From an uncultured virus (IMG/VR IMGVR_UViG_3300018083_000026) (lineage: Duplodnaviria > Heunggongvirae > Uroviricota > Caudoviricetes): DNA of 64,000 nt. The notes under the pieces were generated by a model, which was given only the letters and a program-made list of their open reading frames with translations, did no database searches and had not been told where the DNA came from. Numbering within the stretch: position 1 is the first letter of the stretch; each line of letters begins with the position of its first letter. Where the stretch lies: the IMG/VR virus record IMGVR_UViG_3300018083_000026; one strand, written 5' to 3'. Made by a program: the position numbers and the translations under genes. This document shows positions 14,166-45,165 of the stretch, one piece after another.

Positions 14166-15377
14166 TTAAACGAGCTTGCCCCGGGTGATGAGTGTCTGCG
14201 GAGCGCCGTTGAACGTCCCATGCTCCTTCACGGTTGCCTTGATAGAAACTGCCTCGCCCACACTGGCCACAGACTTGCTGGCGAACCAAGTAACCTGGTT
14301 GCCGTCCTTGTCCTCGAAGCGGGTGATGTAAGTCGTGCCGTAGTCGCCCTCGCGAGTTATGACCCCGGTGCAAGTCAGCTGAAACACTTCCCGCACACCC
14401 ACGGTCCCGATGTGCTTCATCATCGCCTTGCGGGCTTCGAAGGCTGCCTTCTGGTCAGCATTGCGGAGGAACTGGCCGGCGTAGGCTATCAAGCTCGCCT
14501 TGCGCTCCGGGATCAACTCAAAGTTCACCGCATACACAAGCGCCTGGGCAAACTCGTCACCCTCGGGCGCCTCGTAGTTCCGCAAGCGTTCGATAATCGC
14601 GTCCGCTGCGGCCCACGCCGGGTCCTGCGGGTTCTCGAGTGCTGCCCAGATTCCCACCTTAGTTTCCGGGATGGGGGAAGTAGCTGCACGAGCTGCCTTG
14701 CGATGCGTGCCCTCGGCAATAAGCTGCCCATAGTCGTCCTTTTGATTGTAAGTCCAGCCGGAAGTGCGGAACATATACTCCGCAGCGGCGAGGACCCGGC
14801 GAACGCTCACCACGGGGAGAGTGCGGGAGCCGCCTTCGGACGGCCAAATCTCGTCTTCGCCACCCGCATTGAACATACTGACTACAAGGTCCAAAAACTC
14901 GAGCTTGAGGAGACCATCGTGTCCAATATAATCTGCGAAGCACGTCCGGCCGACTTGCATCTCGCGGGCGTCGTCCTTGTTGCGGATGATATAAACGAAG
15001 TTGCGCTTGCGGGCCGCGTGGCAATGATCGCAGTGGGAGGGGTTGGCCGCTGTCCACTTGGCCAAGTCCAAACCCTTCACCGAGCTGTCCACGAACGTGG
15101 AGCCGTCCTCGAGGCGCTCAATCTTGCCCAAGAGGGTCCAGCGATACTGCTCGGTGGACGGGAGGACGAGGTCATACTCGGTCACTTCCACGGGGATCAC
15201 GGCGGAATGCTCCCGGGTCTCGCCGTCCAACGTTTCCACAACGATGCGGGTCTGCTCCACCGTCTTGCGGCCCAGGTTGGTGTAGGTCAGCGGGGCAAAT
15301 CCGACGCGGGTGGCCTTCTTGTTCAGGCGGGCGATTTCCTTTTCGAACGCCCAGGTTTTGCTCACGAGTATCTTCAT
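14166..15377 (-). CDS. Conserved phage protein with Zn site and C-terminal OB-fold
   Basis: CDHC...R.R, VGRTC; C-terminal IKATVKEH...QTLITR; start set by upstream motif. Confidence 0.7.
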   Translation of the reverse strand: MKILVSKTWAFEKEIARLNKKATRVGFAPLTYTNLGRKTVEQTRIVVETLDGETREHSAVIPVEVTEYDLVLPSTEQYRWTLLGKIERLEDGSTFVDSSVKGLDLAKWTAANPSHCDHCHAARKRNFVYIIRNKDDAREMQVGRTCFADYIGHDGLLKLEFLDLVVSMFNAGGEDEIWPSEGGSRTLPVVSVRRVLAAAEYMFRTSGWTYNQKDDYGQLIAEGTHRKAARAATSPIPETKVGIWAALENPQDPAWAAADAIIERLRNYEAPEGDEFAQALVYAVNFELIPERKASLIAYAGQFLRNADQKAAFEARKAMMKHIGTVGVREVFQLTCTGVITREGDYGTTYITRFEDKDGNQVTWFASKSVASVGEAVSIKATVKEHGTFNGAPQTLITRGKLV

Positions 15378-15396
15378 ATGAGTATTGATAAGCAGG

Positions 15397-15753
15397 TTAC
15401 TGGCCCACGAGCTGGCACTCGCCGAACAAGTAATGGTAACCATTTACGTCCTGGGATTGGATTGTGTAGTCATAGCTCTTGAAACAATAGGACCGGACCT
15501 GGGCCTTCTGAACCCACGTTCCATAGTCCTCCTCCGGAGTCGTGATGGTCAACGTGGTCCCGTCGAACGTGTGAGGAACCGAGATGCTAGCAATGTCGCG
15601 CTCATTCCAAGCAAGTCCACCCCGCACGAACCGCCCGGAGCCGTCCACCTCGGCAAAGCAGCGAGAGACTTCCACAATCGTCCCGATAACGTTGCGGTTG
15701 CGCCGGCGCGAAGCTGCTTTGACTTTCTGTCCCACTTCGAATTTTGGTTTCAT
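15397..15753 (-). CDS. Hypothetical early protein (SH3-like)
   Basis: KFEVGQKV; start follows repeat motif. Confidence 0.65.
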   Translation of the reverse strand: MKPKFEVGQKVKAASRRRNRNVIGTIVEVSRCFAEVDGSGRFVRGGLAWNERDIASISVPHTFDGTTLTITTPEEDYGTWVQKAQVRSYCFKSYDYTIQSQDVNGYHYLFGECQLVGQ

Positions 15754-15790
15754 ATACGTATTGATAAGCCGGTGTCGTGCCCGGGCGGGT

Positions 15791-16039
15791 TCAGGCTAAG
15801 CTCTTGCAGCAAGGCGCAAAGTGAATCTCGTTCAAGCCGTCGTCCGCCGTCATGCTGCCCTCGTTTATCATGTCTGCCCAGATGCTGGCGGACACGGACA
15901 GGGCCGTCGCATGTTCCTCGACGCAAAAGTGCTCGCGCAGCTTCTCGAGCTTCTGGCAGTCCGCACAATCGGCCGCATGGACGACGAACTGGCCTTTGGA
16001 CTGGTCGCGTAGGTTTGCTCCGAATATTTTAAGTTTCAT
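15791..16039 (-). CDS. Hypothetical early protein
   Basis: Start follows repeat motif; HxxxCxD and FAPC. Confidence 0.65.
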   Translation of the reverse strand: MKLKIFGANLRDQSKGQFVVHAADCADCQKLEKLREHFCVEEHATALSVSASIWADMINEGSMTADDGLNEIHFAPCCKSLA

Positions 16040-16067
16040 ATGGGTATTGATAAGCCGGTGTCGTGCC

Positions 16068-16244
16068 CTATTTAATCGTGGTGAACGCTAGGCCCCGGGC
16101 GGACGCGTCCACATCATTTTCCTTCAGCCACATACTGACCGCGTTCCGCTCCTGCTTGCGAGCCTCCGCCAGCGACCGGGCGAGGACTGTGAATTCGACC
16201 GTGGTGTAACCGAGTGCGCTGACTGTGATGATATATTGTTTCAT
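16068..16244 (-). CDS. 58-aa hypothetical early protein (MKQYIITV...), not in ORF track
   Basis: Start follows repeat motif; stop codon overlaps the next motif. Confidence 0.6.
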   Translation of the reverse strand: MKQYIITVSALGYTTVEFTVLARSLAEARKQERNAVSMWLKENDVDASARGLAFTTIK

Positions 16245-16272
16245 ATGGATATTGATAAGCAGATGGTAGGCC

Positions 16273-16467
16273 CTAGCGGCTCCGAAAGTTTTGGCGGACT
16301 GCCTTCGCTAAGGCTACCGCAATCACCCGAGTAGCTTCTAAACGAGCTTGGCATCGCGGGTCCATGCAAGCACGGTAATGTGCCACCCGCTGCTTGAAAC
16401 TGTGGATGGCTCGTGCCTCATCGCACATGGGCGTGGACGCCGGAGGGATTGAAATCTTGTCGATCAT
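16273..16467 (-). CDS. Hypothetical early protein
   Basis: Follows repeat motif. Confidence 0.5.
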   Translation of the reverse strand: MIDKISIPPASTPMCDEARAIHSFKQRVAHYRACMDPRCQARLEATRVIAVALAKAVRQNFRSR

Positions 16468-16492
16468 ATTGATAAGCCAGTGCCATACCCAA

Positions 16493-16738
16493 CTAAGATA
16501 TAATAAACAGTTCCGGGCCCTTGCGGGAAGTGTCGGAGTCATTGTCCACTGCTAAGCCGCTGTCCGAATAAGCGGATTCACGAGTGGACCGACGCTCTAC
16601 TTCACCCCGGAGCAAGTGAACTTGCTGCGTGTGGGAATGGTCCCCGTAATCAGAGGCGAACGCTACCTGAGTATCGGGTGGGAGCTCTTGCAATGCTTCG
16701 ATGAGCTCCTGAGCTGTGACGGATGTAATGTTTTTCAT
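16493..16738 (-). CDS. Hypothetical early protein
   Basis: TAQELIEALQELPPD pattern; follows repeat motif. Confidence 0.65.
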   Translation of the reverse strand: MKNITSVTAQELIEALQELPPDTQVAFASDYGDHSHTQQVHLLRGEVERRSTRESAYSDSGLAVDNDSDTSRKGPELFIIS

Positions 16739-16772
16739 ATGGATATTGATAAGCAGGTTACTGGCCCGATGC

Positions 16773-16943: not shown

Positions 16944-17012
16944 CCTGTTCAAGTTGTCCAAACAAATCTTGATAAATCGTCTAGTGCCTATCAGCAAGTA
17001 GCAGGCCCAGGA

Positions 17013-17432
17013 CTACAAGGCACGAACTTCGACGTCGATACACTTGAACTTTTCCCCGCTATACAACTGGACTCCCTTTTGGGCGTTCCTCAAGGACATA
17101 GACCACTGAAGGACAGTGAGCTTTCCGAGACCCGCAGCGATGCTTTGCTCCAACTGTTCACAACGTTCACGGACTTGGCGCCAGATGCTGGCCTGGACAT
17201 CGGTGGTCCATCCCGCGTCCAACGCTATCTGCTGGCATGTCTTGTTACTGCCAATCCCTTCGATCAGCCCCTTATAATATTCCGCGTTCGAGCGATCGAT
17301 GGAGTTAGGCTGGCTATACTCCCGGCGGAGGCGGGCAATGTCCTTACGGCCGATGACTACATGGGTATAGACGCGGTTGGAGGAACGAGTGTGAATAACA
17401 CCCTCGAGAGTGTAGGAAAACTTGTTCTTCAT
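17013..17432 (-). CDS. Hypothetical early protein
   Basis: TRSSNRVYTH; start follows repeat motif. Confidence 0.65.
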   Translation of the reverse strand: MKNKFSYTLEGVIHTRSSNRVYTHVVIGRKDIARLRREYSQPNSIDRSNAEYYKGLIEGIGSNKTCQQIALDAGWTTDVQASIWRQVRERCEQLEQSIAAGLGKLTVLQWSMSLRNAQKGVQLYSGEKFKCIDVEVRAL

Positions 17433-17453
17433 ATGGGTATGTATCAGCAAGTG

Positions 17454-17615
17454 TTAGACCCGAGCTTGCCGAGCTTCTTCCCGGGCTTCCTGTTCGAGGA
17501 AACGGCGGGCGTAAAGGCTGTTCGATCGCTCCCAATCCCGGCGGGCCTGGGCGACTACACTCCGGCGGTAGAGATACTGCTCATCGCGGGCTTCGTTTCG
17601 TTCTTGTTCAGTCAT
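17454..17615 (-). CDS. 53-aa charged helical protein (MTEQERNE...), not in ORF track
   Basis: Start follows repeat motif. Confidence 0.55.
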   Translation of the reverse strand: MTEQERNEARDEQYLYRRSVVAQARRDWERSNSLYARRFLEQEAREEARQARV

Positions 17616-17855
17616 GACAGCATATAAGCAGGTGATAGGCCCACTAGTTCAAGCTTGCCCGGATTGCCAATGGTCCATCTACAAGCCAAGTGCCCTGGAC
17701 AAAAGGGAGAAAGATGGACCATGGGGTCACGGGCCCCCTCCGACCCCTATCAGCAGAATCCAGGCCCACGTCCGGTCCACCAACGGTCCACCTGCCCTGG
17801 ACAGGCGCCCACAAACGGGATGAGCCAATACGAGCGCGGAACAGGCTTAGCACGT

Positions 17856-17886
17856 AAAAGGGTCATATCAGCGATATGACCCTTTT
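17856..17886. terminator. Bidirectional-type intrinsic terminator downstream of queC
   Basis: AAAAGGGTCATATC-agc-GATATGACCCTTTT perfect inverted repeat. Confidence 0.75.
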
Positions 17887-17910
17887 TGACCCAAGGAACA
17901 GGAGTCGCAC

Positions 17911-18615
17911 CTAAACGTGCCAGCCCTGCTCCACAAGCAACTCAGTCGGAGGCGCGTCCGGAGCATAGCGGGTAGGGTCGCCCACACCCGCCAGCCAAAA
18001 AGCTTCCCGGCGTTCAATGCACGTCCCGCAGCGGCCACAGTGGGACGTAGAACCCACGTAACATGACCAAGTGCATTGAAACTTCACTCCCAGCTTATCT
18101 CCCAGCTGCACAATCCCGGACTTGGAATAGTTAATGAAGGGGCGGAGCAACTCGATTTGCTTCCAGTCGCATAGGTTGGCCACAACTTGCATTGCGTCCG
18201 CAAACTCCGGCCGGCAGTCCGGGTAAATCGCGTGGTCGCCCGCGTGGGCGGCATAGGCAACGCTATCGCATCCGTAGGCGATAGCGTGCCCAATTGCTAC
18301 TGCCAACAGAATCATGTTGCGATTAGGAACGACAGTGGCCTTCATATTCTCCTGAGTGTAGTGGCCCGTCGGCACGGGAATGCGGGTATCCGTTTGCGAG
18401 CTGCCGGGGAGGAGAGCGCCCAGCGTCCACAAGTCCGCATTAGTGTAGGGTATGCTTAAGGACGTTGCTTGAATCTGAGCGCACTCGAGCTCGCGCCGAT
18501 GACGCTGGCCATAATCGAAGGAGATGGCCCGCAACTCGGTGCCTTCCTTTTTGAGGTAGTGGGCGAGGACGGTGGAATCCATCCCGCCGGACAATAGAAC
18601 GACAGTTTTTCTCAT
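17911..18615 (-). CDS. queC: 7-cyano-7-deazaguanine synthase
   Basis: SGGMDS, FDYGQRH, VPNRN, YPDCR, TWSCY, CGRCGTC. Confidence 0.96.
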   Translation of the reverse strand: MRKTVVLLSGGMDSTVLAHYLKKEGTELRAISFDYGQRHRRELECAQIQATSLSIPYTNADLWTLGALLPGSSQTDTRIPVPTGHYTQENMKATVVPNRNMILLAVAIGHAIAYGCDSVAYAAHAGDHAIYPDCRPEFADAMQVVANLCDWKQIELLRPFINYSKSGIVQLGDKLGVKFQCTWSCYVGSTSHCGRCGTCIERREAFWLAGVGDPTRYAPDAPPTELLVEQGWHV

Positions 18616-18622
18616 ATGCTTA

Positions 18623-19390: not shown

Positions 19391-19417
19391 ATCATAAAGC
19401 TAAGATATGAGGGGAGA

Positions 19418-20287: not shown

Positions 20288-20288
20288 A

Positions 20289-22139: not shown

Positions 22140-22793
22140 TCAACCCGCCTCCTGCTCGTCACAATAAGAGAATCCGATTATCCCTCTCGCTAGGAGGCTG
22201 CGGAACTCGACCGGGTTCAACGCATACTCCGGCGAATGCTTATGCTTCCACACGCCCTGGAACCGGCGCCTAATTTCCTCCTGGGCAGCTTCAAAACGGT
22301 CGTGGGTGTAACCCCGACACATCAAGGAACGTTTCACGCGCGTCAGCAAGAGCTCGGGCGATAGAATGCTCCGCCACTTCTTAGGAGTCTCCTCCACGAG
22401 CAACTCAACAATCTCCCGGGCGTCCTCGGATAAGTCCTCCCATATCTCCAAACACGGACTGCGGGTGGCCGGTGCCGTGAGCTTGAGAACGCCGCGCAAA
22501 TTGTCCTTGAACTCAATCTGCGGGAGGCGTTGCTGGCGTTTCACCTTTTCGGTAATACGACTCTTGAATTGCCATTTGAAAATTTGGGTGTAGAAGGAGG
22601 AGAACTTAACTCGCCGCTTGGGGTCGTAGTAGTTCCACGCCCGCATGAACTGCCAATAAGCCTCCCCTAAACACTCATCAAACGGCAGCCGGTATTGGGC
22701 GGAGGCGTCCCACGCCAGCTTGTATGCTAAATTTTGAACCTCAGCCAGCATCACGTCCGGCTCCGGCTTCTGTTTCTTCTTTGTTAGATTCAT
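22140..22793 (-). CDS. Phage sigma70-like factor (region 2)
   Basis: LAYKLA...DECLGEAY..FMRAW..YDPKRRVKFSSF. Confidence 0.7.
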   Translation of the reverse strand: MNLTKKKQKPEPDVMLAEVQNLAYKLAWDASAQYRLPFDECLGEAYWQFMRAWNYYDPKRRVKFSSFYTQIFKWQFKSRITEKVKRQQRLPQIEFKDNLRGVLKLTAPATRSPCLEIWEDLSEDAREIVELLVEETPKKWRSILSPELLLTRVKRSLMCRGYTHDRFEAAQEEIRRRFQGVWKHKHSPEYALNPVEFRSLLARGIIGFSYCDEQEAG

Positions 22794-22812
22794 AATATAG
22801 GTTAGCAACCTA

Positions 22813-22847
22813 CACAATCTGGGCCGGTGGGTCCAGCCCAGATTGTG
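22813..22847. other. 12-bp perfect hairpin upstream of the sigma-like gene
   Basis: CACAATCTGGGC-N11-GCCCAGATTGTG. Confidence 0.6.
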
Positions 22848-22856: not shown

Positions 22857-23591
22857 TTAACCAATTATGGACGAGCTGGAAGCCGCTCCGCCGACCTGCC
22901 GCAAATTCACGGAACGTCCTTTGGCGTATCCCGTCTGGTAAGCATCGTAATCAAACACCCGCATACTAGACTTGCGGGCTTTGATGAGGTGCGGAAATTC
23001 CTGGGCGACCCGCTGCTCCACCAAAGCGTCCTTGTTCACAACGATGAGGGCCCAAGATTGTGCTTCGGGCTTGCTCAAGGTCTGTTCCGCCCGCTTGTTG
23101 GCAGCCAGGAGGCCGTTATAGAACCCGGAGTAGGCTCCGTTCGCTGTGGCTGCTTCGTAGTCTGTTTCGCCGCGCGACTTCCGAATGGACCAGTAACAGC
23201 CCCAGTAGGACTCCTCCAGCCAGGGAAAGAGCTCCACACAAACCGCCACGTCGAACGCTTCACCGATGAAGACATAGGACCGGTAAACTGTAATGATACG
23301 GATGCCGAAAATTACGCTCAGGGTGGAACAAACGTATTTGTGATAGGGGCGGAAGTGCTTGGATCGAATCTTGACAGTGCCCTTATCCACCGTAACAGAA
23401 TTGGACTTGGGGGCCTTGGGGTCCGCCATTGCGATGCTGGCGAGCTCTAGGTGGTAGCGCATGGCGATTTCCTTTGCCTTGCCCATCGCGGCTTCCATCT
23501 CGTGTTGGGTGGCACCCTTGCCGTGGGCAAGGGCGAGGCACTTACGGATTTTCTCGATTACGTCGTCACTAACTTTGTTTGTGTCATTCAT
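22857..23591 (-). CDS. DUF2786-family protein
   Basis: IEKIRKCLALA....AT.HE..AA..KA..I...Y.L. Confidence 0.8.
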   Translation of the reverse strand: MNDTNKVSDDVIEKIRKCLALAHGKGATQHEMEAAMGKAKEIAMRYHLELASIAMADPKAPKSNSVTVDKGTVKIRSKHFRPYHKYVCSTLSVIFGIRIITVYRSYVFIGEAFDVAVCVELFPWLEESYWGCYWSIRKSRGETDYEAATANGAYSGFYNGLLAANKRAEQTLSKPEAQSWALIVVNKDALVEQRVAQEFPHLIKARKSSMRVFDYDAYQTGYAKGRSVNLRQVGGAASSSSIIG

Positions 23592-23627: not shown

Positions 23628-23819
23628 TCACTCGTAATAGGTCCCGCCCAGTGCCCCCCGGACCCGCACTAAACCAAGCTCCGCATACACTTGTTGACGT
23701 TGTCGGCGAGCGAGGTTCTTCTTCGCCCGGGCGGAGGCGTCCATATAGTCCCGGGCCCGGGCGATTGCTTGCTGCTTCGGGCTCATTCTGTCCCACACGG
23801 TTTGCTTGTTTGCATTCAT
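23628..23819 (-). CDS. Hypothetical early protein
   Basis: Start follows motif; ends GLVRVRGALGGTYYE. Confidence 0.65.
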   Translation of the reverse strand: MNANKQTVWDRMSPKQQAIARARDYMDASARAKKNLARRQRQQVYAELGLVRVRGALGGTYYE

Positions 23820-23848
23820 GATATTGTATTAGCAGATTATTGGCCCAG

Positions 23849-24082
23849 TTAGAACTTGATAATCTCATGCACACCACCCCGGTAAAGTGACTGTCCGGTG
23901 CTCAGGACCTTGGTGAACTTAAAGGACTCGGAACGGCGGGCACCGGCGCGTTGCACGCGGATGGAGTGGGTGTTCACGCGGGTAACTACGGCCGGCGCCG
24001 TCCAGCTGCGGATGATGATCCCGATACACTGGCTACTGGTGATCTGCACTGTCTCTCCGACTTTCAAGTTGTTTACGTTCAT
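23849..24082 (-). CDS. Hypothetical early protein (SH3-like)
   Basis: LKVGETV; start follows motif. Confidence 0.6.
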   Translation of the reverse strand: MNVNNLKVGETVQITSSQCIGIIIRSWTAPAVVTRVNTHSIRVQRAGARRSESFKFTKVLSTGQSLYRGGVHEIIKF

Positions 24083-24255
24083 GATACACTATAAGCAATT
24101 CACTGGCCCGTTGAACGGAGCACAAGCCCAAAGCAAACTGTCCATCATTATATCAGCTGTCCAGGACCGTTGGTCCATCTCTGGACCGGTCGACCCACTG
24201 CACTATACTATAGTCAGCTGGTTCAAGCGGGCACGCGACTTGCTGATAGTCCTTC

Positions 24256-24441: not shown

Positions 24442-24472
24442 GTCGGGCCTAACCTCTGCTATCAATACTCAT

Positions 24473-24790
24473 ATGAAACTACGCGATTTTGAAAACCGGT
24501 TCGAAGCGACACTCCAGTCGCACAAGCTCGAATACACAATGGAAACGACAACGGAAACCGCTGTGGGGATTACCTGGGTTTGGAAGTCCTACTCCATCAA
24601 ACCCCGCTGCGCCTTCAACGGTCCCTTGCTGGTGACGCTGGGTAAGCATACCCGCCCGGGTGGGTTCAATCGCCGCTCCCGGACCGGCTGCTCGTGCTTC
24701 GTAGTCCCACCCCACGGCATGGGGAGCAAAGCCGTCCACGGGCTGACTGCCGTGTGGCGTTTCATCCGCATCATTTGCCTGCCGCTCTAA
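24473..24790 (+). CDS. Hypothetical early protein
   Basis: Start follows motif. Confidence 0.6.
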   Translation: MKLRDFENRFEATLQSHKLEYTMETTTETAVGITWVWKSYSIKPRCAFNGPLLVTLGKHTRPGGFNRRSRTGCSCFVVPPHGMGSKAVHGLTAVWRFIRIICLPL

Positions 24791-24886
24791 GCCTTCGGGC
24801 CTAGGAATTGCTGACAGAGCTCATAGAAAATAATGCAAGAATAGATTGGACAGACTGATAATAAACACAGATAGATAATATAGGTT

Positions 24887-25615
24887 ATGAACATGGTTTA
24901 CTTAAGGGTCGGGGACGTGATAGAAACAAGTGGAGACCAGTGGGTCGTAGTAATGGTGAACGATTGTCGCGCCCGCTGCCGCTGCCTGTCCCGCAAGACC
25001 CGCATCGTAAAGGATGGACTGAACAATCAAGTCCACGAGTTCGAAGGCACGGCTGCGATGATTAACATTAGCAACCTGATCGAGCCCGGGGAAGTCCTCC
25101 GCCATGATCGAGATTTAGTTAGCAACATAAACAAAAACAAAACACAGAAAGCAGACACAATGAAAGACAAGACAGCAAAAACCGACAAGAAAACTGAAAC
25201 CACCCACACCGGGCTCCTCGGCGGGATCTTTGGACTCTCCGTGACCAGCGTGCTTCGCCGGCTCGGCAAAGAGGGTGTTACCACCGCCCACGCCCGGGAG
25301 ATCATGAAGGCCCAGAACGTGGAAACCTCGGACATTACCGTGAGCATCCAGGTCAACGCTGGCCGCCGGGGCAAAGGCGGCCCGCCTGCGGAACTCACCG
25401 CCGCTCAGATCAAACAGCTCGTTTCCAGTGCTCCCGCACCCAAGGCCCCGGAGAAGAAAGAGAAGCCGGCCAAGGCCGCGAAGAAGGGTGTCAAAGCCGC
25501 TCCCGCAAAGAAGGACGCAAAGCCCGCTAAGCCGGCGAAGAAGGCTGCCAAGCCCGACGACGAGGAGGCTGCCAAGCCCGACGACGATGAGGAAGTGGTG
25601 AGCCCCGAAGACTGA
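24887..25615 (+). CDS. Protein with histone H1-like PAKK-rich region and acidic tail
   Basis: KPAKAAKK..APAKKDAKPAKPAKK, AAKPDD repeat; possible internal start MKDKTAK. Confidence 0.65.
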   Translation: MNMVYLRVGDVIETSGDQWVVVMVNDCRARCRCLSRKTRIVKDGLNNQVHEFEGTAAMINISNLIEPGEVLRHDRDLVSNINKNKTQKADTMKDKTAKTDKKTETTHTGLLGGIFGLSVTSVLRRLGKEGVTTAHAREIMKAQNVETSDITVSIQVNAGRRGKGGPPAELTAAQIKQLVSSAPAPKAPEKKEKPAKAAKKGVKAAPAKKDAKPAKPAKKAAKPDDEEAAKPDDDEEVVSPED

Positions 25616-25634: not shown

Positions 25635-25665
25635 AGCCCTAGGATTTTCCTAGGGCTTTTTTTTT
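25635..25665 (+). terminator. Rho-independent terminator
   Basis: AGCCCTAGGA-ttt-TCCTAGGGCT followed by T run. Confidence 0.9.
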
Positions 25666-28063: not shown

Positions 28064-28534
28064 ATGACAAAAATGACACGAACACGAGCGATTACATTTT
28101 TCGCCGCCATCGGCTTTCCTAAAGCGGAGGAGTGGGACGATGCCAAGCTTATCCACCGGCTTTCCCAAGTTCCTTCTCGGGTATCCGATCAGGACGTGCC
28201 TACCTCAGCCATGCCAGTTTATGACGAGTTGCGGGAGGCCCCGACCGTGCAGTTCATCCGCGAGCCCGGGGAGCCGGCACCCAAAGCGGCCCGTCCCAGC
28301 CGTGCCAAGCCACCCACGGATAAAACCGAGCCGGAGCGGGACAAGGATGGTGCGGCCCACGGAACCATTCGAGCTGCCGTGAACGCAGTCTTGTCCGTCG
28401 CTTGGAAAACCGATAAGAAGATTGCTAAGGATGCGGGCGTCGGCTTGCAGCAAACCCGCCGCTGGCTCCGCAAGATAATACAGGATGGAAAAGTGGAGAA
28501 ACGAAACCAAATCATTTACCGGCTTATTGAATAA
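28064..28534 (+). CDS. Hypothetical protein with C-terminal wHTH
   Basis: TDKKIAKDAGV....TRRWLRK...GKVE. Confidence 0.55.
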   Translation: MTKMTRTRAITFFAAIGFPKAEEWDDAKLIHRLSQVPSRVSDQDVPTSAMPVYDELREAPTVQFIREPGEPAPKAARPSRAKPPTDKTEPERDKDGAAHGTIRAAVNAVLSVAWKTDKKIAKDAGVGLQQTRRWLRKIIQDGKVEKRNQIIYRLIE

Positions 28535-28899
28535 TGTTTACCCTCACCAAAGAATTCAGGTTTGAGGCTGCCCACATGCTCCCGCATCATGATGGGAAGT
28601 GTCGGCGGCTCCACGGCCACAGTTGGAAGATGCGGGTAGAGCTGCGGAAGATCGGGCTGGAGGTCGAGGGACCCAAGCGAGGGATGCTGATGGACTTTGG
28701 CGACATCAGCAAAGCGATCCAGCCGTTGCTGGAGACGAGATTGGACCATCACTATTTGAACGAAACAACAGGCTTGGAGAATCCCACCAGCGAGGAAGTA
28801 GCGAGGTGGGTGTTCAACCACCTCGAGGGGGAATTGGCTTATCTGCACGCGGTAGAAATAGATGAGACTTGCACGTCCTCATGCCGCTACGAGTTATGA
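28534..28899 (+). CDS. queD: 6-carboxytetrahydropterin synthase
   Basis: FEAAH, CRRLHGHS, DFG, LDH..LN, PTSE, ET. Confidence 0.96.
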   Translation: MFTLTKEFRFEAAHMLPHHDGKCRRLHGHSWKMRVELRKIGLEVEGPKRGMLMDFGDISKAIQPLLETRLDHHYLNETTGLENPTSEEVARWVFNHLEGELAYLHAVEIDETCTSSCRYEL

Positions 28900-29582
28900 G
28901 TAACACCTATCCCATCCACGAGATGTTCGACACTTTCCAAGGTGAGGGAGTTCACATGGGGAAGCCGGCATTTTTTATTAGAACGTATGGCTGTCCGGTT
29001 CATTGTCCTTGGTGTGATTCGGCTGGGACCTGGCACCCGGACTGGATACCCAAGGACGTGAGCCGGATGACTCCAGAACAGATTGTAAAGTCGCTCCCGC
29101 CCCGAACTAAGATTGTTATCATTACGGGAGGAGAGCCCACAATCTTTAACCTCAATCCGTTGGTGGATGAACTCCACATGCTTGATATACAAGTCCACTT
29201 GGAAACAAGCGGAGGCTTTCCCATCCAGGGAGAGTTGGATTGGATAACCCTCTCGCCTAAGAAGTGGAGGCATCCCATTCCGTCTGCACTGGTCCGGGCC
29301 GACGAGTTCAAGTTTATCATCGAGACGGAGGAGGACATTGACTTTTATTGGAAGTTGATTCAGATGCCGAACTATACGGAGGATCGTCCTATTTGGTTGC
29401 ATCCGGAGTGGAGCCAGCACAAGAATTCGAAGGTGCTAGAAGCAATCTGTGAGGCGGTGAAGGATGGGGAGGGACAATATCGGGCGGGCTGGCAGCTTCA
29501 CAAGTGTTATGGCGTGGACTTGCTAGATAAGCGGTCCCGGCCCATGGTCCCGCTCGGTGGAGATTATAAAAGAGGATTCTAA
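28896..29582 (+). CDS. queE: 7-carboxy-7-deazaguanine synthase (radical SAM)
   Basis: [33 protein letters not shown]. Confidence 0.95.
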
Positions 29583-30514
29583 TGGAAAAGCTCATTCTAA
29601 CTAATACGGATTGCGTTCAAGCTGCCAAGCGGCTCAAGGGGGACTATTGGAAGAACAAGTCAGGCGGGATCTCATGGGTCTACGGCGTTCCGCGGGGCGG
29701 CATCCCCGTTGCCTACTTGGTCGATCCCGAGCACGTCGTGGAGAAGCCAGAGGAGGCTACCTTGATTGTAGATGATATCACGGACAGTGGGCGGACCCGC
29801 GACCGTTATGTGAAGGACTTCCCCGACGCTGAATTCATGTCGCTCGCGGACTATCTCGAGCCCAAACGGGTCCCAGGGCAATGGATAGTTTTTCCTTGGG
29901 AGCAGGGCGAGCAGGGGCAAGACGCTTCTGCTGACGACATTGTCGTGCGGCTCTTGCAATACATTGGCGAGGACCCTAACCGGAATGGATTGCTCGATAC
30001 TCCCCAGCGGGTTCTCAAGTCTTGGAAGGAACTCACCTCCGGTTACAGCCAGGACCCGGGCAGCATCTTGGAAAAGAGCTTTGACATTCACCGCTACGAC
30101 CAAATCATTGCTTGTTCGTGGATTGAATTCTATTCGTTGTGCGAACATCACCTCTTGCCCTTCCACGGGTATGCTCACGTCGGTTACATTCCTGCGGCGG
30201 GCGACATCCACAACATACCCAAAGTGGTGGGCCTCTCCAAGCTTGCCCGTTTGGTGGAATGCTATGCCCGCCGGCTGCAAGTCCAGGAGCGGATGACTGA
30301 AGACATTGCCCACGCCCTCGAAGAACATTTGCTCCCACGCGGAGTCGCCGTGGTCATCCAAGCAAAACATTTGTGCATGGCCTGTCGGGGAGTGGAGAAA
30401 CATAAGTCCGTGATGGTAACTAGCTCGATGCGGGGAGCCTTCCGGGAAGTAGGGCCCGCCCGCGCCGAGTTCTTCCAGCTGATCGACCTAGCATATCATT
30501 CCAATGGCAAGTGA
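29582..30514 (+). CDS. folE: Type I phosphoribosyltransferase fused to GTP cyclohydrolase I
   Basis: N-term [25 protein letters not shown]-term [33 protein letters not shown]. Confidence 0.93.
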
Positions 30515-31556
30515 ACCCGTCACTCCGCTCTTGGGCTCCGAATCTGTCTTTATGGATTCGGGCGCCTTTTCCCTTTACGCCATTAACGTCGGCAAGAGCC
30601 AAGGGCAAGCTGGCCGGGAAGGTTATGCTGAAGTCTCAGCAAAGCGGCGGGGCGGGGAGAAGCTAGACAAGGCCCAATTACGTTGGGGTGCGGGTGACTA
30701 TTCCTACTTTAACCTAGCGAAGGGTTCTGAATTCCGCCGCTACTGCGACAAGTATGCGAGCTTCATACGGAGGTTTGAAGGACGGGATATTACCTTCGCC
30801 ACAGTAGACGCCATCCGGCACCCAGAACTCTCTTGGACCGTGCAGAAGTATTTTGAGGAGGAGCATGGGCTCTATCCGGTCCCCGTTGTCCACGGCGGAA
30901 CACCTCTCCGCTATTTGCATCGTTACTTAGAGGAGCCCAAGAAATATCCTATGGTGGGCCTAGGCGGGCTGGCAGGTGGCATGCGTCCCTTTATCGAATG
31001 GGTGGACGCGGCCTTCTACGATATCTGCCCACAGTCCAATAAGTATCTCCCCATCGTGAAGGTTCATGGCTTTGCGGTGACCTCCTGGGAATACATGATC
31101 CGCTGGCCTTGGTGGAGTGTAGATTCAACTAGCTGGATTAAGTATGCGGCTTACGGCTGGATTCTGGTCCCGCCCTGGGGCGAGGGAAAGTTTCGATACG
31201 ATCTTCCGCCGCTGCAACTCAACATGAGCCGCAAGCCCACTCCCCGCATGCATCGTTCCTTGCGGGCCAAGGGCAAGAGTCCCCGGCAGCAAAAGGACAA
31301 CCACTATGACAATACCTCTAATCTAGTGCAGGAGCAGACGGACCGATGGATCGCCCACTTGAAAATTCCCATGGGCGCCTTTGCGGAGGACGAGATTATA
31401 GAAGATGGAGTTAGTTCCTCCTTCCGCTCCCGGGCTATTGTAAATCTGCACTACTTCAAAAACTTGGAGGAGTCTATGCCACTCTGGCCCGTCCCGCTCA
31501 ATCGGGAATTGATCCGGCAGCATTCTGTTTTATACCATCGAGGGTTTGGCTTGTGA
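30504..31556 (+). CDS. DpdA/TGT-like DNA base-exchange transglycosylase (putative)
   Basis: [30 protein letters not shown]; directly after folE. Confidence 0.8.
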
Positions 31557-32974: not shown

Positions 32975-33162
32975 TGCCTGAGAAGTCTTTCCATATTAAA
33001 TTTGACATTAAGGATAAAGTGCTCATCAAGGAAATACAAAGGCCAGGAACAGTCGACGCAGTCACCCTCGATTACTTGGGCATTCAATATCGGGTGGCTT
33101 ACTGGGACAATAGCGACCGCCACTCCGTATGGTTACCTGAAGACGAGTTGACAGCTCGATGA
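32974..33162 (+). CDS. Small SH3-like hypothetical protein
   Basis: KFDIKDKV...QYRVAYW. Confidence 0.55.
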   Translation: MPEKSFHIKFDIKDKVLIKEIQRPGTVDAVTLDYLGIQYRVAYWDNSDRHSVWLPEDELTAR

Positions 33163-34343
33163 AAGGCTTCTTCCCATCTTCCGAAGTGCAACGGGAGCAA
33201 CCCGGAACTCTGTTGCCCAAATGCGGCTCCTGCGGACTCTTCAAGCATTGCGAGAGCCCTAAGATGAAACCCTACGGGAAGGGCGGCCAAGAGGTGCTAG
33301 TCGTTGGGGAGGCGCCCGGGCAAACGGAAGATGAAATGGGGAGGCCATTCATTGGCAAAGCCGGCCAGTTCTTGCGCTCGTGTTTGGACTCCGCAGAGAT
33401 TGACTTAGACAAGGACGCCTGGACCACCAACGCTCTGATCTGCCGTCCGCCGGGCAACAAGACCCCTGACGAAAAACAGATTGGATATTGCCGGCCCAAC
33501 CTACTGAACGCTATAGAGCATTACCAACCCCGGGTGGTGCTCACCCTCGGGCGGGCCGCGTTGGCGAGCACCTTAGCCCCTTACTGGAATGATATAGGCC
33601 CTTTGGAGCGGTGGGTGGGATGGACGATCCCGATAGAGAGCCACTGGATCTGTCCCACGTATCATCCCAGTTACTTGCTGCGAATGAAGAACCCGCTAAT
33701 GGACCGAACTTTCAAGGACCATTTGCGGCAGGCCTTTGAGATTAATCGGGACCCACCCGCCGCGTTTGACTTCGAACAAGCAATTGAAATCCTATATGAC
33801 GAACAGGAAATTTATGAGGCAATTCGTGCTATCAATTTCATGGGAGGATGGGCGGCGGTGGATTATGAATGCAACTGCCTCAAACCAGAATATCCCGGAG
33901 CCCGAATCGTCTCCTGCTCCATCTCCAACGGCCAGCGGACTATCTCTTATCCCTGGGTCGGCAAGGCTATCACTGCCACCGATATGTTCCTCCAGTCCAT
34001 CGGAACTACCAAGATCGCTTCCAACCTCAAGTTCGAGGAACGGTGGACGCTGAAGACGTTTGGGCGGGGAGTGGTCGACTGGGGTTGGGATACAATGCTC
34101 GCAGCCCACTGTTTGGATAACCGCCCGGGCATCTGCTCCCTCAAGTTCCAGTCTTTAGTGAAGCTCGGTGTTCCAACCTACAATGACAATATTGAACCCT
34201 ACCTCTCCAGCGCCCGCGGCAGCCATCTAAACCGCATTGAGGATATCGAATTGAAATCGCTTCTCTTCTACGGCGGGATGGACGCTTTGCTAGAACATAG
34301 GCTTGCCATGCGCCAGCGGAAAGAGATGGGTTATGAAGATTGA
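33159..34343 (+). CDS. Family-4 UDG-like domain fused to 3'-5' exonuclease (N-terminal part of split SPO1-type DNA polymerase)
   Basis: C..C, GEAPG..ED..GRPFIG, CRPP.N, HPS; then DYE, N.KFE, DTMLA, Y.GMD. Confidence 0.88.
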   Translation: MKGFFPSSEVQREQPGTLLPKCGSCGLFKHCESPKMKPYGKGGQEVLVVGEAPGQTEDEMGRPFIGKAGQFLRSCLDSAEIDLDKDAWTTNALICRPPGNKTPDEKQIGYCRPNLLNAIEHYQPRVVLTLGRAALASTLAPYWNDIGPLERWVGWTIPIESHWICPTYHPSYLLRMKNPLMDRTFKDHLRQAFEINRDPPAAFDFEQAIEILYDEQEIYEAIRAINFMGGWAAVDYECNCLKPEYPGARIVSCSISNGQRTISYPWVGKAITATDMFLQSIGTTKIASNLKFEERWTLKTFGRGVVDWGWDTMLAAHCLDNRPGICSLKFQSLVKLGVPTYNDNIEPYLSSARGSHLNRIEDIELKSLLFYGGMDALLEHRLAMRQRKEMGYED

Positions 34344-35811
34344 ACCTCTTAGGATGGAGGGATACGAGCTGCTTCATGACGGCGCGATTGCCTTGGCGCA
34401 GATCGAAGCCAACGGAATCCGCATCGACACCGACCGGCTCGCTGCCACCCAAGTAAAACTAACTGATAAGATTCGCAAGCTGCGGCAAGAATTAGAAACC
34501 TCCGAACTGTGGAAGGTGTGGCGCCGGCGCTTTGCTGCCCGGGCGAGCTTAACCTCCCGCGATCAGCTCGCTACCGTGTTGCATGATGAATTAGGTTTCC
34601 AAGTGGGTGAACTAACCGTAGGTGGAAAACCATCTACGGACGAGGAAGCCCTGCAAAAGATAGATCATCCTGACGTCCGCACCTTCTGCCGGCTAGCCAA
34701 ATACGAGAAAGCCCTGGGGACATTTATCAAAGGGATTGAAAGGGAAGTGGTAGGAGACCGGCTCCACCCCGTCTACAACTTGCACTTGGCCCGCACCTAT
34801 CGTTCCTCCAGCGACTCACCCAACTTCCAAAACTTCCCCGTCCGGGACAAAGAGATATCAAAAATCATCCGCAGCTTGTTCATTCCTTCCCTCGGCTGCG
34901 TCCTGGTGGAGAATGACTTTAAGGGGATAGAAGTCGCCCTGTCCGCAGCGTATCACCACGATCCCGTCTTCATTGATTACATCACGACCCCGGGCAAGGA
35001 TATGCACCGGGACATGGCGGCCCAACTCTACTTGTTAGAGCCGGAGCAGGTAGATAAAGACATCCGTTACGGAGCCAAAAACAAGTTCGTATTCCCCCAG
35101 TTCTACGGAGACTTTTATGTCTCTTGTGCCCGCTCGCTGTGGGAGTGGATGCGGCAGGGAAAGCTTATGGGACCGGACGGAAAGCCGCTGAGAGAGCACT
35201 TAAAGCAACAAGGAATAGAGCGTCTGGGCGCTTGCGACCCTGAGGAGGAGCCTTTGCCTCATTCTTTTGAGAAGCATGTTCGGGCCGTGGAGGATGACTT
35301 CTGGAACAATCGATTCAAAGTGTATGGGCGTTGGCGCAAGGCTTGGTTCAGGAATTATCAAGACAAAGGTTATTTCGATCTCCTAACGGGCTTCCGGGTC
35401 CAAGGAGTCTTTGCCCGCAACGCCGTCACCAACTATCCCATCCAGGGCTCCGCGTTCCACTGCCTGCTCTGGTCGCTAATCGAAATCAACCGCATCCTCG
35501 CCAAGCGTGGCATGCAGAGCAAACTCGTCGGGCAGATTCACGATAGCTTGCTCGGAGATGTTAGAGTGGAGGAGCTGAGCGATTACCTCTCCATCGTAGA
35601 GGCAGTGACGATGACATACCTCCCCCGGCACTGGAGTTGGTTGAACGTTCCACCACAAATTGAGTATGAGATGTGTTCGCTGGGTGGAAACTGGTTCCAC
35701 AAACAAGAGTTCCGATTTAAGCAAGGGCGGTTTATTCACCCGGAGAAGGCGAACAAGTCCACGACGGATTCCCGGCGCTTTGTCCAAGCTTTAGGAAAGG
35801 CATCTAAATGA
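34333..35811 (+). CDS. DNA polymerase family A, polymerase domain
   Basis: RSSSDSPNFQN, motif A DFKGIE, motif B R..AK....F...YG, N.PIQG, motif C QIHDS. Confidence 0.93.
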   Translation: MKIEPLRMEGYELLHDGAIALAQIEANGIRIDTDRLAATQVKLTDKIRKLRQELETSELWKVWRRRFAARASLTSRDQLATVLHDELGFQVGELTVGGKPSTDEEALQKIDHPDVRTFCRLAKYEKALGTFIKGIEREVVGDRLHPVYNLHLARTYRSSSDSPNFQNFPVRDKEISKIIRSLFIPSLGCVLVENDFKGIEVALSAAYHHDPVFIDYITTPGKDMHRDMAAQLYLLEPEQVDKDIRYGAKNKFVFPQFYGDFYVSCARSLWEWMRQGKLMGPDGKPLREHLKQQGIERLGACDPEEEPLPHSFEKHVRAVEDDFWNNRFKVYGRWRKAWFRNYQDKGYFDLLTGFRVQGVFARNAVTNYPIQGSAFHCLLWSLIEINRILAKRGMQSKLVGQIHDSLLGDVRVEELSDYLSIVEAVTMTYLPRHWSWLNVPPQIEYEMCSLGGNWFHKQEFRFKQGRFIHPEKANKSTTDSRRFVQALGKASK

Positions 35812-39221: not shown

Positions 39222-39229
39222 ACAAGATC

Positions 39230-42625: not shown

Positions 42626-42721
42626 GGTCGTAAAAAGATTTTGGAGCTTTGTAGACATTCAAGGGCCCAATGATTGCTGGGTCTGGCTTGTAGCTGAAAG
42701 AAAATCTTGGAGGCATGTAAT

Positions 42722-43312: not shown

Positions 43313-43483
43313 GACTGCGAAATTCCTGCCGAGCTTGCCCCTTCCCGCTGTCTTTCGAGTTAAAGGGTCCCAAAGTAGTGGGGAAGGGTCCGAGCACGTC
43401 CCAAAGCAAAGGGCCGGTGCGGAATAGAAACACACCGGCCCAACCCATCCAGCGGAATGCCAAGCCGCCATCAGGAAAGTAAT

Positions 43484-43891
43484 TTACAAAACAAAGTTGT
43501 CCAGCTCTCGCACGTTGCAGCGATGAACCTTTCGGTCCGCAGCTACGACCAACGCTTCGAGCCGTCCTATATCCAATTGCATGATAGACACAGCTTGCCC
43601 GCGGAAGTGGGCAGTTCGATAGTGCGGCAGCTTGTGTTTGAAGTCGGGTCCATACTTGTCCTCAAAGTAGGAAAGCGGGCGGACGGGTCCGGGGAGGTTC
43701 CCGGAGGCTAGCTCCAGCAAGATGGCAAGGAAGTCCAGCGGGTCTATAATGTCAGTAATATGGAATGTGGCTTGCGGACAGGACGGCGCGAGGAAGGAGT
43801 CGACATACCGATCCGCCGCATCCTCATCGTCAAAGATCCCCACAGTTCCCGTCACGGTCCCGTCCACCTTAATTTCAATGATATATTTCAT
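43484..43891 (-). CDS. Hypothetical protein
   Basis: ORF in reverse-oriented accessory block. Confidence 0.55.
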   Translation of the reverse strand: MKYIIEIKVDGTVTGTVGIFDDEDAADRYVDSFLAPSCPQATFHITDIIDPLDFLAILLELASGNLPGPVRPLSYFEDKYGPDFKHKLPHYRTAHFRGQAVSIMQLDIGRLEALVVAADRKVHRCNVRELDNFVL

Positions 43892-44097
43892 TTTGGTTTC
43901 ACTTCTGTTGGCTTATTATCTTGGTTGTTTATATTCTGCAAAAAATGGTCCCGGCACGGTTCACATATTGTATGGCTGAGCGGCAAGCCTAATTCCCGCA
44001 GCTCAGGGTGGAGCAGGAAGAGAGTCTTTCCGGGGAGGCACCAGCCACAAACGGAAATCTTACCCGCTGCTTGATTCACTTCAAAGTTGCCAGTCAT
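43888..44097 (-). CDS. Small Zn-binding protein
   Basis: VCGWC...SHTICEPC. Confidence 0.55.
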   Translation of the reverse strand: MTGNFEVNQAAGKISVCGWCLPGKTLFLLHPELRELGLPLSHTICEPCRDHFLQNINNQDNKPTEVKPK

Positions 44098-44306
44098 ATA
44101 AATATAGTCGGACAGTCGACAATTAATCCGCCACAATGTTTACACTTGCTAGTGATGAAACTCTCTCCAGCCATCAACCCACGCCGGCGTTTAATGTTCT
44201 GGAAGCAATGGGCAGCTGGGCCGTTCGCCACCCGCTTAGGATTGTCCGGACAATCCCGCTTCGAATACCACTGCCCTGTTGCTAAAGTTTTGTCTTGGTT
44301 AGTCAT
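44094..44306 (-). CDS. Small Cys-rich protein
   Basis: CP, HC, CKHCG. Confidence 0.45.
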   Translation of the reverse strand: MTNQDKTLATGQWYSKRDCPDNPKRVANGPAAHCFQNIKRRRGLMAGESFITSKCKHCGGLIVDCPTIFI

Positions 44307-44494
44307 GAAAGCCTCCAATCCCGCAGCGTGGACCTGAACTGAGCTGCTTCGTTGCGTGCCCGCTCCAGCATGTGAGCGCGGCAGGTGGGTGTATAGCGTG
44401 CTAGCAAACAGAACCGGCGGATTTCCGACCGATGCCAGGTCAAGACCTGGTTGTATATCTGCGCCGCAAGCTCTGTGTTCTTCTTAATAACCAT
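44303..44494 (-). CDS. Hypothetical protein
   Basis: Coupled ORF. Confidence 0.45.
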   Translation of the reverse strand: MVIKKNTELAAQIYNQVLTWHRSEIRRFCLLARYTPTCRAHMLERARNEAAQFRSTLRDWRLS

Positions 44495-44750
44495 AAATGC
44501 CTCCGGTCGTTTCTGTGTTGCGCGTGCAAGTATCGCAGTGATAGTTATGCGCCTTCTGGTAGGGCGTTAAAAGGCGCTCCCGACAATCCGGGCAGAGCAG
44601 TGGATGTTTGCTAATGTCCCTGGGCTTAGGCTCGACACCGGTGGCACATTGCTTGCACTTACCCTCGTGGGTGCGGGCGTATTGCCTTGTGGTCTTGGTC
44701 CCGCACTGGGTGCAAGCTGCGAGTAATACGGAGTAATTTGGTTTTGGCAT
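44484..44750 (-). CDS. Zn-finger protein
   Basis: CTQC, CKQC, CPDC, YHCDTC. Confidence 0.6.
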   Translation of the reverse strand: MPKPNYSVLLAACTQCGTKTTRQYARTHEGKCKQCATGVEPKPRDISKHPLLCPDCRERLLTPYQKAHNYHCDTCTRNTETTGGIYGY

Positions 44751-44751
44751 A

Positions 44752-44943
44752 TTAGCTTTTGAATTGAGAGTTATAGGCTTCAATGAACTTTGGCAAGTCT
44801 CCAGTAACTACGATTTTGGTGCAAGCGTCGGACGTAGTAGCTTGGCACCCGGTTTTCTCCGCTGGATATGTGACGCACTCCAGCTGGCTCTCGTTCATAA
44901 TACCGGTGAAGGTGATTTTGTCTTTTGTGACTCTTGTTCTCAT
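44752..44943 (-). CDS. Hypothetical early protein
   Basis: Start follows motif at 44957-44972. Confidence 0.55.
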   Translation of the reverse strand: MRTRVTKDKITFTGIMNESQLECVTYPAEKTGCQATTSDACTKIVVTGDLPKFIEAYNSQFKS

Positions 44944-44956
44944 ATAGGTATGTATC

Positions 44957-45165
44957 AGCAAGTGTTGTGCCCGATTTGGCCCTACTGGTTGAAACCCGCT
45001 ATCACTTGCTCCACAGATGCTTCCTGGGCCCGGGCGTCCGCTTTGCTGGCCTTCTGCACAGTGTCGAAGCTGACACACAAGAAGAGGTATAAGCCGGCTG
45101 CTACTGCCACGGTTACTGCTAAGCTTTTTAATGTCATGACAATACTATCAGCAAATGCCAGGCCC
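44957..45165 (-). promoter_or_regulatory. Two sigma54-like promoters
   Basis: GGGCACAACACTTGCT (44957-44972), GGGCCTGGCATTTGCT (45150-45165). Confidence 0.75.
44982..45137 (-). CDS. Small membrane protein
   Basis: MTLKSLAVTVAVAAGLYLFLC; follows motif. Confidence 0.55.
   Translation of the reverse strand: MTLKSLAVTVAVAAGLYLFLCVSFDTVQKASKADARAQEASVEQVIAGFNQ

Follow-up and report, generated by a model that had tools for sequence, protein, structure and literature searches.

Which form of RNA polymerase reads the short element that stands before one small gene after another in an uncultured tailed phage from sediment? The question is raised by a stretch of 64,000 nucleotides (IMG/VR record IMGVR_UViG_3300018083_000026), called the window here, which covers 64 kb of a 69,996-nt contig. 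An earlier note on this DNA had described 18 copies of a motif with GG-N10-GC spacing and had read them as promoters of sigma-54 (RpoN) driving near-leaderless genes. We infer that these copies, designated class II elements, are gene-by-gene promoters for small accessory genes, with leaderless or near-leaderless messenger RNAs (mRNAs), because their strand, position, conservation and context agree. Sigma-54 is the best single candidate for their reader, with about an even chance of being the right one. A second promoter-like element, designated class I, would more probably serve a sigma factor of the phage itself.

Class II Element and Its Sites

The pattern GGGYNNNNNNNNKGCT has 29 matches in the window, against a mean of 11.5 (standard deviation 3.8) in shuffled sequences, and none of 100 shuffles reached 29. 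All 18 copies of the earlier note were recovered among these matches at the same coordinates and on the same strands. The other 11 matches are without the downstream extension and look like chance. For the extended pattern GGGY-N8-KGCT-N-AY, 1.28 matches would be expected and 17 were found, a number that no shuffle out of 100 attained; all 17 belong to the 18 sites. Outside the extended pattern is site 24445 only, where TGCT is joined directly to ATCAAT. The core of the motif noted earlier thus stands, and its extent has to be corrected, as alignment of the 18 sites gives a longer element, yGGGC(C/A)nRnnAyyTGCT-kATA-N5-7-ATG, in which the kATA after TGCT often continues as ATCAATAYNCATATG. Counted from an A located 13 nt after GC, GGGC occupies -27 to -24 and TGCT occupies -15 to -12. 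Downstream of TGCT there is an A/T-rich stretch, then a C-A step (motif positions 27-28 both in sites with ATG 12 nt and in those with ATG 14 nt after GC), and then the ATG. The sites are as follows (ORF, open reading frame; aa, amino acids).

15391..15406, minus strand, class II site; ATG 14 nt after GC; 403-aa ORF 14166-15377 (phrog_2319)
15767..15782, minus strand, class II site; ATG 14 nt after GC; 118-aa ORF 15397-15753
16053..16068, minus strand, class II site; ATG 14 nt after GC; 82-aa ORF 15791-16039
16258..16273, minus strand, class II site; ATG 14 nt after GC; 58-aa ORF 16068-16244
16475..16490, minus strand, atypical class II site; ATG 8 nt after GC; 64-aa ORF 16273-16467
16752..16767, minus strand, class II site; ATG 14 nt after GC; 81-aa ORF 16493-16738
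16993..17008, minus strand, atypical class II site; no close ATG, TTG 28 nt after GC
17446..17461, minus strand, class II site; ATG 14 nt after GC; 139-aa ORF 17013-17432
17627..17642, minus strand, class II site; ATG 12 nt after GC; 53-aa ORF 17454-17615; GATGGACCA box 28 nt upstream
17752..17767, minus strand, class II site heading the array; no ORF start within 30 nt; also in relatives L015, L016 and L017
23605..23620, minus strand, class II site; ATG 14 nt after GC; DUF2786 protein 22857-23591
23831..23846, minus strand, class II site; ATG 12 nt after GC; 63-aa ORF 23628-23819; orthologue in L016 has GATAAT after TGCT
24094..24109, minus strand, class II site heading the leftward block; ATG 12 nt after GC; 77-aa ORF 23849-24082
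24229..24244, plus strand, class II site heading the rightward block, GGGCACGCGACTTGCT; ATG 12 nt after GC; 61-aa ORF
24445..24460, plus strand, variant class II site with the TGCT-ATCAAT junction; ATG 13 nt after GC; 105-aa ORF 24473-24790
24797..24812, plus strand, atypical class II site; ATG 75 nt after GC, with class I site 24874 between; 242-aa ORF
44957..44972, minus strand, class II site; ATG 14 nt after GC; 63-aa ORF 44752-44943
45150..45165, minus strand, class II site; ATG 13 nt after GC; 51-aa ORF 44982-45137; GATGGACAG box 29 nt upstream

All 18 sites are on the coding strand. Fourteen of them are followed by an ATG opening an ORF of 51-403 codons, at 12 nt (four sites), 13 nt (two) or 14 nt (eight) after GC, and at 12 sites the preceding cassette has its stop codon between -9 and +10 nt from the motif's 5' edge. 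Both observations agree with the earlier description of sites mostly 12-14 nt before an ATG and often with the previous stop in or beside the motif. The genes behind the sites encode small proteins of no known function, together with the 403-aa phrog_2319 protein and the DUF2786 protein, and they are probably early genes. The context is promoter-like as well, since a terminator-like hairpin (17856-17887) precedes one array and two head sites face each other across a divergent region. Site 17752 is followed by a conserved GC-rich hairpin, GGGGTC...GACCCC (17722-17767, minus strand; 1586 in L015, 8894 in L016 and 3618 in L017), which may represent a small RNA or a structured leader.

Spacing of the Two Blocks

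In the window and the related contigs L016 and L017 taken together, 30 pattern hits were found, of which 48028 was dropped as chance-like, leaving 29 real sites. The distance from GG to GC is invariant in 18 of 18 sites of the window and in 29 of 29 real sites of the three sequences. The N8 spacing gave 30 hits, against 1, 3, 0, 4, 4 and 1 for N5, N6, N7, N9, N10 and N11, none of these at a cassette head. The distance from GC to ATG ranges over 12-14 nt, and the ATCAAT block shifts by 1 nt relative to TGCT. Because the GGGC-TGCT spacing is fixed while the ATG distance and the ATCAAT block float, TGCT is coupled to GGGC and not to the -10-like block, which matches what is predicted for a -24/-12 site.

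Promoters of the -35/-10 type are not enriched in 13.0-26.5 kb (7 against 6.9 expected), and the 18 aligned sites have no conservation upstream of GGGC and no -35 hexamer. The -10-like block carries A at the equivalent of -11 in 17 of 18 sites and T at the equivalent of -7 in 5 of 18. The TAnnTTTG box of Bacteroidota is not enriched either (33 against 24.5).

Conservation in Related Phages

Three IMG/VR contigs, L015, L016 and L017, are syntenic relatives with proteins mostly 50-84% identical; a further one, L014, is the same phage as the window. In these related phages, of the kind that the earlier note proposed to survey, the class II element is kept at the corresponding cassette heads of all three, at a protein identity of 70-80%. 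Between orthologous sites the 7-8 nt separating the blocks vary freely, with GGGC and GCT fixed. An ATG is located 12-14 nt after GC at 22 of the 29 real sites. The cassettes from queC to the 403-aa gene carry 10 sites in the window and four in L016 and in L017, a difference in cassette number that is usual for accessory early regions.

A motif scan of IMG/VR returned 13 loci, in which the members of the family are a 12-kb fragment of the phage itself (L001/L002, three matches) and L010, a locus on the contig that also holds L017. The contigs behind L003, L004, L007 and L008 have one to three motif matches each and no array. Scans of genome contigs with the SNF2 helicase and with a large terminase (TerL) alignment of three sequences yielded no relative, and DNA comparison matched no cultured relative.

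Translation Starts and Probable Host

The Shine-Dalgarno (SD) motif, as GGAG or GAGG, precedes one of the 21 genes standing behind either promoter type, which bears out the earlier statement that most sites are followed by an ATG with no SD. Over all 89 starts of the window it is found 10 times, a rate like the 10.2% of random positions, and the start regions are A-rich. TerL is at most 39% identical to its matches at full length and up to 47% over a part, with phages of Flavobacteriia as the best matches; the J-like tail protein resembles those from phages of Gram-negative bacteria. The chance-level SD, the A-rich starts and the TerL affinities hint weakly at an SD-independent host such as a member of Bacteroidota. 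According to PMC9723704, Bacteroidota have one sigma-54, typical -24/-12 promoters and no SD use, and in Flavobacterium psychrophilum leaderless mRNAs are few (5.5%). A Bacteroidota-like host would perhaps make the sigma-54 reading feasible, without showing it.

Class I Promoter-Like Element and the Phage Sigma Factor

The class I element, with the consensus aGATAATA-N5-ATG, is conserved in L016 and L017. GATAATA occurs in 20 copies in the window against 3.9 expected; 18 of the 20 are oriented with the local genes, and in about 10 copies an ATG follows after 5 nt (6-7 nt in a few). Upstream only A at -13 is conserved, and there is no -35 element. With GATAAT read as -12 to -7, position +1 falls on the A of the ATG, so that class I would give fully leaderless mRNAs. 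Class I copies precede queC, the queD-folE operon, the gp32/RecA operon, sbcC, the helicase/primase block and the 242-aa gene, and several genes near the structural module. The features of this group are:

24874..24880, plus strand, class I example, aGATAATA; ATG at 24887
3626, 9780, 9961, 14153, 18627 and 22141 (minus strand) and 28048, 37290 and 45235 (plus strand), other class I copies with a nearby ATG; a further copy at 9164 (minus strand)
22140..22793, minus strand, phage sigma-70-family factor; sigma2 domain and C-terminal domain
22791..22808, minus strand, TTGCTAACCT-N5-ATG element before the sigma gene; kept in L016; TTGCT half present, no GGGC half

The ORF 22140-22793 alone is below the Pfam cut-off for Sigma70_r2 (19.9 against 24 bits). 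Its family consists of 170-200-aa proteins, mostly viral, with Sigma70_r2 recognised in 49 of 60 members and region 4 in 0 of 60. The structural model has a predicted local distance difference test (pLDDT) score of 83.7, and its best match is the N-terminal domain of SigE (Z-score 10.5, root mean square deviation 1.7 Å, 74 residues); at full length it aligns to chains of extracytoplasmic function (ECF) sigma factors, sigma-28 and sigma-S. Of the 50 Foldseek matches listed, 49 are sigma factors or polymerase complexes that contain one, and the other is an RNA-guided transcription complex; E is at least 0.077. By its family and its model, the product is a sigma-70-family factor in which region 2 is clear. 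Pfam gives no recognition for the C-terminal domain, and tblastn of the sigma factor had no match in the phage collection. The gene is located downstream of class II sites 24094, 23831 and 23605, and a hairpin without T-run (22818-22842) precedes its TTGCTAACCT-N5-ATG element. Of the two promoter-like elements, class I suits this factor better than class II.

TGGAC Boxes and the 242-aa Protein

Boxes of the form rrTGGAC(A/C), some of them in inverted pairs, cluster only at the three starts of class II arrays, at 17.7 kb, 24.14-24.19 kb and 45.2 kb. A GATGGAC(A/C)(G/A) box is positioned 28-30 nt upstream of GGGCC at 17627, 24094 and 45150 and in the L016 orthologue. The boxes could be operators or enhancer-like sites. 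They and the neighbouring features are located as follows.

17671..17792, TGGAC boxes around the two leading promoters of the array at 17.7-15.4 kb
24138..24190, rrTGGAC(A/C) cluster between the divergent class II sites 24094 (minus) and 24229 (plus)
45195..45203, minus strand, GATGGACAG box between class II site 45150 (minus) and class I site 45235 (plus)
17856..17887, minus strand, terminator-like hairpin with T-run, after queC and just upstream of the 10-promoter array
24887..25615, plus strand, 242-aa protein with beta-barrel, four-helix domain and Lys/Ala/Pro-rich tail

The barrel of the 242-aa protein is SH3/KOW-like and its tail histone-H1-like. Its gene forms a transcription unit of its own, preceded by elements of both promoter types and followed by a terminator-like site at 25635, and the protein is a candidate DNA-binding regulator. 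It has 13 homologues, none of them named; no PDB sequence matched it, and no fold matched at E <= 0.001. P0010, a relative of this protein, had no tblastn match in the phage collection.

Reader of the Class II Element

The consensus of sigma-54 promoters is reportedly YTGGCACGr-N3-TTGCW (Barrios et al. 1999). The match to it was expressed as position counts over the 18 sites. GG and GC agree in 18 of 18 sites each, and the flanks agree at C-23 (16/18), T-14 (15/18), W-11 (18/18) and Y-27 (16/18), and in part at G-20 (10/18) and T-15 (9/18). Counted over the consensus outside GG and GC, five of eight positions agree. Site 24229 (GGGCACGCGACTTGCT) is the closest to the consensus among the 18. 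Among Escherichia coli sites from chromatin immunoprecipitation, there is a site bound by sigma-54 in vivo that begins TGGGCA (PMC4591121, Table 1). Sigma-54 transcription starts 19 bp after the motif centre, that is, 12 nt after C (PMC4591121), which here would fall 1-3 nt before the ATG, and by a rule of 12-13 nt the start is predicted 0-3 nt before it. Of the earlier claim of a sigma-54 regulon of near-leaderless mRNAs, the promoter-like siting has held, in strand, locked ATG position and conservation; the proposed assignment to sigma-54 fits the geometry and several of the flanks.

Several observations weigh against sigma-54. Where the consensus has T at -26, each of the 18 sites has G, as does every site of the relatives. 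A-22 and C-21 are present in five and four of 18 sites, with mostly C and T/A there instead. Conservation also extends beyond the sigma-54 consensus, to A at motif position 10 (16/18), A18 (17/18) and T19 (16/18), and kATAnn occupies the place of a sigma-70 -10 hexamer, with a perfect GATAAT there in one orthologue. Pfam scans of 90 ORFs gave no enhancer-binding protein, and the six-frame translation of the 64 kb contains no GAFTGA-like peptide, in agreement with the earlier statement that the window encodes no GAFTGA activator; PF00158 matched only the clamp loader, in its P-loop part. As TGGAC boxes are found at the array heads only, most sites are without an enhancer-like sequence, and at most sites there is little room for one because in 12 of 18 no more than 10 nt separate the motif from the end of the preceding gene. 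An ATP-dependent activator for early genes is mechanistically awkward. Finally, the sigma-54 reading presupposes an rpoN gene in the host.

The main alternative, genuine though rather unlikely, is a hybrid promoter in which a sigma-70-family holoenzyme would act with an activator, phage-encoded or from the host, on GGGCC as a '-26 element' in place of the -35 and on kATAnn as a weak -10, with the start set at the ATG, comparable to the 'sigma adaptation' of PafBC or the 'sigma appropriation' of T4 MotA/AsiA. If the start is the A 13 nt after GC, GGGCC occupies -27 to -23, within the region of -23 to -28 that PafBC contacts on promoters without -35 and with -10 (PMC8635444). The block kATAnn has the A equivalent to -11 in 17 of 18 sites and stands 5-7 nt before the ATG, much as the GATAAT of class I stands at 6 nt; the L016 orthologue of 23831 even has GATAAT in its place, and the conserved TTGCTAACCT-N5-ATG of the sigma gene, having no GGGC, suggests that TTGCT with an A-rich block can stand alone. 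The 242-aa protein, with its helical domain, basic tail and own transcription unit, would be the candidate regulator. However, the T equivalent to -7 in 5 of 18 sites only falls short of a canonical -10, and TGCT is locked to GGGC (29/29) and slides by 1 nt against the -10-like block, where an extended -10 would do the opposite. The sigma-54-like sequence and spacing of both blocks would moreover have to be coincidence, and neither Pfam scans nor the fold search of the 242-aa protein (E <= 0.001) found an activator or adaptor.

It is improbable that the phage's own sigma-70-family factor (22140-22793) reads class II as the promoter of middle genes, with class I or the TTGCTAACCT element as the early promoter read by the host. 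A sigma factor that appears two-domain is indeed encoded, and its gene has a conserved promoter-like element of its own. The blocks are only 7 nt apart, however, and GGGCC taken as a -35 would put the -10, 16-17 nt on, in unconserved sequence and the start past the ATG; three class II sites lie ahead of the sigma gene itself without any T-run terminator to separate them from it, and class I, being -10-only, is the more natural target of the factor. Least probable is that the element marks no start of this kind, being instead a signal for processing or translation control on a polycistronic RNA, a joint for cassette recombination, or a promoter served by a phage RNA polymerase whose gene lies beyond the window. 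A position on the coding strand abutting start codons would also suit an RNA-level signal, the cassette content from queC to the 403-aa gene varies (10 here, four in L016 and L017), and about 6 kb of the contig lies beyond the window. Against this, the head sites are placed as promoters are, after a terminator-like hairpin or opposite one another across a divergent region, the part of the contig outside the window matches structural genes, and no RNA polymerase gene was found in the 64 kb. A conserved RNA structure was rejected, as the consensus fold has only -0.29 kcal/mol and three pairs, none with compensatory change, and no Rfam family matched.

Proposed Course of Transcription

Under the sigma-54 reading, the host sigma-54 holoenzyme would read the GGGC and TGCT blocks, and promoter opening would depend on an AAA+ activator, which would have to be the host's since the phage encodes none, acting either in solution or at the TGGAC-box clusters found at the head of each of the three arrays. 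Transcription would start at the A of the ATG or 1-3 bases before it, and the 5'-terminal AUG would be the signal for ribosome entry. Each small gene, even an abutting one, would have its own promoter because a 5'-terminal AUG would mark the start where SD plays no visible part. The phage sigma-70-family factor, made from the early region, would then read class I (aGATAATA-N5-ATG), whose targets would be the replication genes, the nucleotide-modification genes and some later genes.

It is a tentative and on balance doubtful extension of this scheme that a virulent phage of an SD-independent host bypasses the housekeeping sigma factor altogether, first with about 18 leaderless promoters for host sigma-54, served by a host AAA+ activator that senses stress or physiology (with three shared TGGAC enhancers or none), and then with its own sigma factor on a -10-only promoter.

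Other Genes of the Window

Genes run leftward from about 24.1 kb, rightward over 24.25-48.9 kb, and leftward again from 64 to 49.1 kb, with a short leftward island at 43.5-45.1 kb. No tRNA genes were found in the window. The structural genes include TerL, portal, a Mu-F-like head protein, tape measure and the J-like tail tip protein. Replication genes are those of a family A DNA polymerase (two ORFs), sliding clamp, clamp loader, DnaB-like helicase, SNF2 helicase and a primase-like protein, and there are also RecA-like, gp32-like and SbcCD-like proteins and ThyX. The modification genes comprise a 7-deazaguanine set (FolE, QueD, QueE, QueC and a TGT-like protein) and several glycosyl- and methyltransferases.

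The two ORFs of the DNA polymerase, 33159-34343 and 34303-35811 (plus strand), overlap and correspond to consecutive parts of one PHROG profile (469-828 and 831-1236), and the first of them (33159-34343) also carries a uracil-DNA glycosylase superfamily domain. A split gene might explain this, as might a frameshift or a sequencing error. The 7-deazaguanine pathway set, located at 17911-18615 (minus strand) and 28534-31556 (plus strand), is complete (QueC, QueD/PTPS, QueE, FolE and a TGT/DpdA-like protein) and, as judged from gene content, implies a modified phage DNA. Glycosyltransferases (GT2, GT11, GT34-like and sialyltransferase-like) and two methyltransferases are encoded inside the structural block at 3-3354 and 63056-63997 (both minus strand). 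Some proteins of this cluster are 84-93% conserved between the relatives, above the neighbouring genes. The position of the glycosyltransferases amid structural genes makes glycosylation of the virion possible.

In a metagenome scan for the missing end of the contig, two short contigs matched. Beyond the right end of the window, a related metagenome contig has, upstream of the glycosyltransferase homologue, a virion structural protein and not an activator. The approximately 6 kb of the contig outside the window appear to be structural.

Significance and Comparison with Known Systems

If class II is read by sigma-54, the whole early programme would be tied to an activator-gated form of the host polymerase, with infection only in a particular state of the host; enhancer-dependent transcription would work on tightly packed one-gene units, and sigma-54 transcription would be joined to leaderless translation. 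With the bypass of the housekeeping sigma factor, sigma-54 would be a main entry for phage gene expression, and its transcripts could be translated leaderless. The hybrid promoter would instead represent a new class that depends on an adaptor and is defined by a -26 box. Under both readings the phage is a compact system open to testing, with two or three short promoter types, leaderless messages and a small phage sigma factor.

Late promoters of T4 (TATAAATA) are read by gp55. They resemble class I only, in the -10-only element of 8-9 nt, the small sigma-like factor, the sliding clamp and the clamp loader. They differ in that the factor of the present phage appears two-domain, no gp33-like protein was identified here, and the transcripts would be leaderless. 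Class I is also like the promoters of Deinococcus-Thermus, where -10 boxes adjacent to ORFs give leaderless mRNA, the -10 being placed for a start at the start codon (GATAAT-N6-A of ATG here), as described in PMC12340547. The host group is likely different, given the chance-level SD and the Gram-negative-type tail genes.

Middle promoters of T4, served by MotA/AsiA, have a similar design of box plus -10 with an adaptor protein. PafBC promoters also have no -35, a box near -26 to -30 together with a -10, and the housekeeping holoenzyme with an adaptor (PMC8635444). Unlike both, class II has a -10-like block without T at -7 and a TGCT rigidly tied to the upstream box, and no adaptor gene was found in the phage window.

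Known sigma-54 promoters (glnAp2, pspA, nifH) share with class II the invariant GG and GC at 10-nt spacing, C-23, T-14 and T-11, and the start about 12-13 nt after GC, which is a predicted one here. They differ from it in that every class II copy has G at -26, CC(T/A) and not CAC is found at -23 to -21, there are extra A/T positions downstream, and 18 phage copies abut start codons with no activator gene and, at most copies, no enhancer-like sequence.

The full-text literature, supplements and some subscription journals aside, yielded neither a report of a phage with sigma-54-type promoters in an array nor one of leaderless transcripts made by sigma-54 in phages. The earlier note had called a sigma-54 regulon an unusual phage strategy; unprecedented would be too strong, as PMC5053324 describes phage use of sigma-54 as rare though with precedent and cites Pseudomonas phage YuA, a siphovirus, as dependent on host sigma-54. 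One mapped start of this virus, YuA P015, is labelled sigma-54-like in the table row of PMC10914365, and by our own reading of that row its 50-nt sequence also holds a -35/-10-like pair. YuA is thus like the present phage in its cited use of host sigma-54 and unlike it in having, as far as these sources go, one such promoter and no array.

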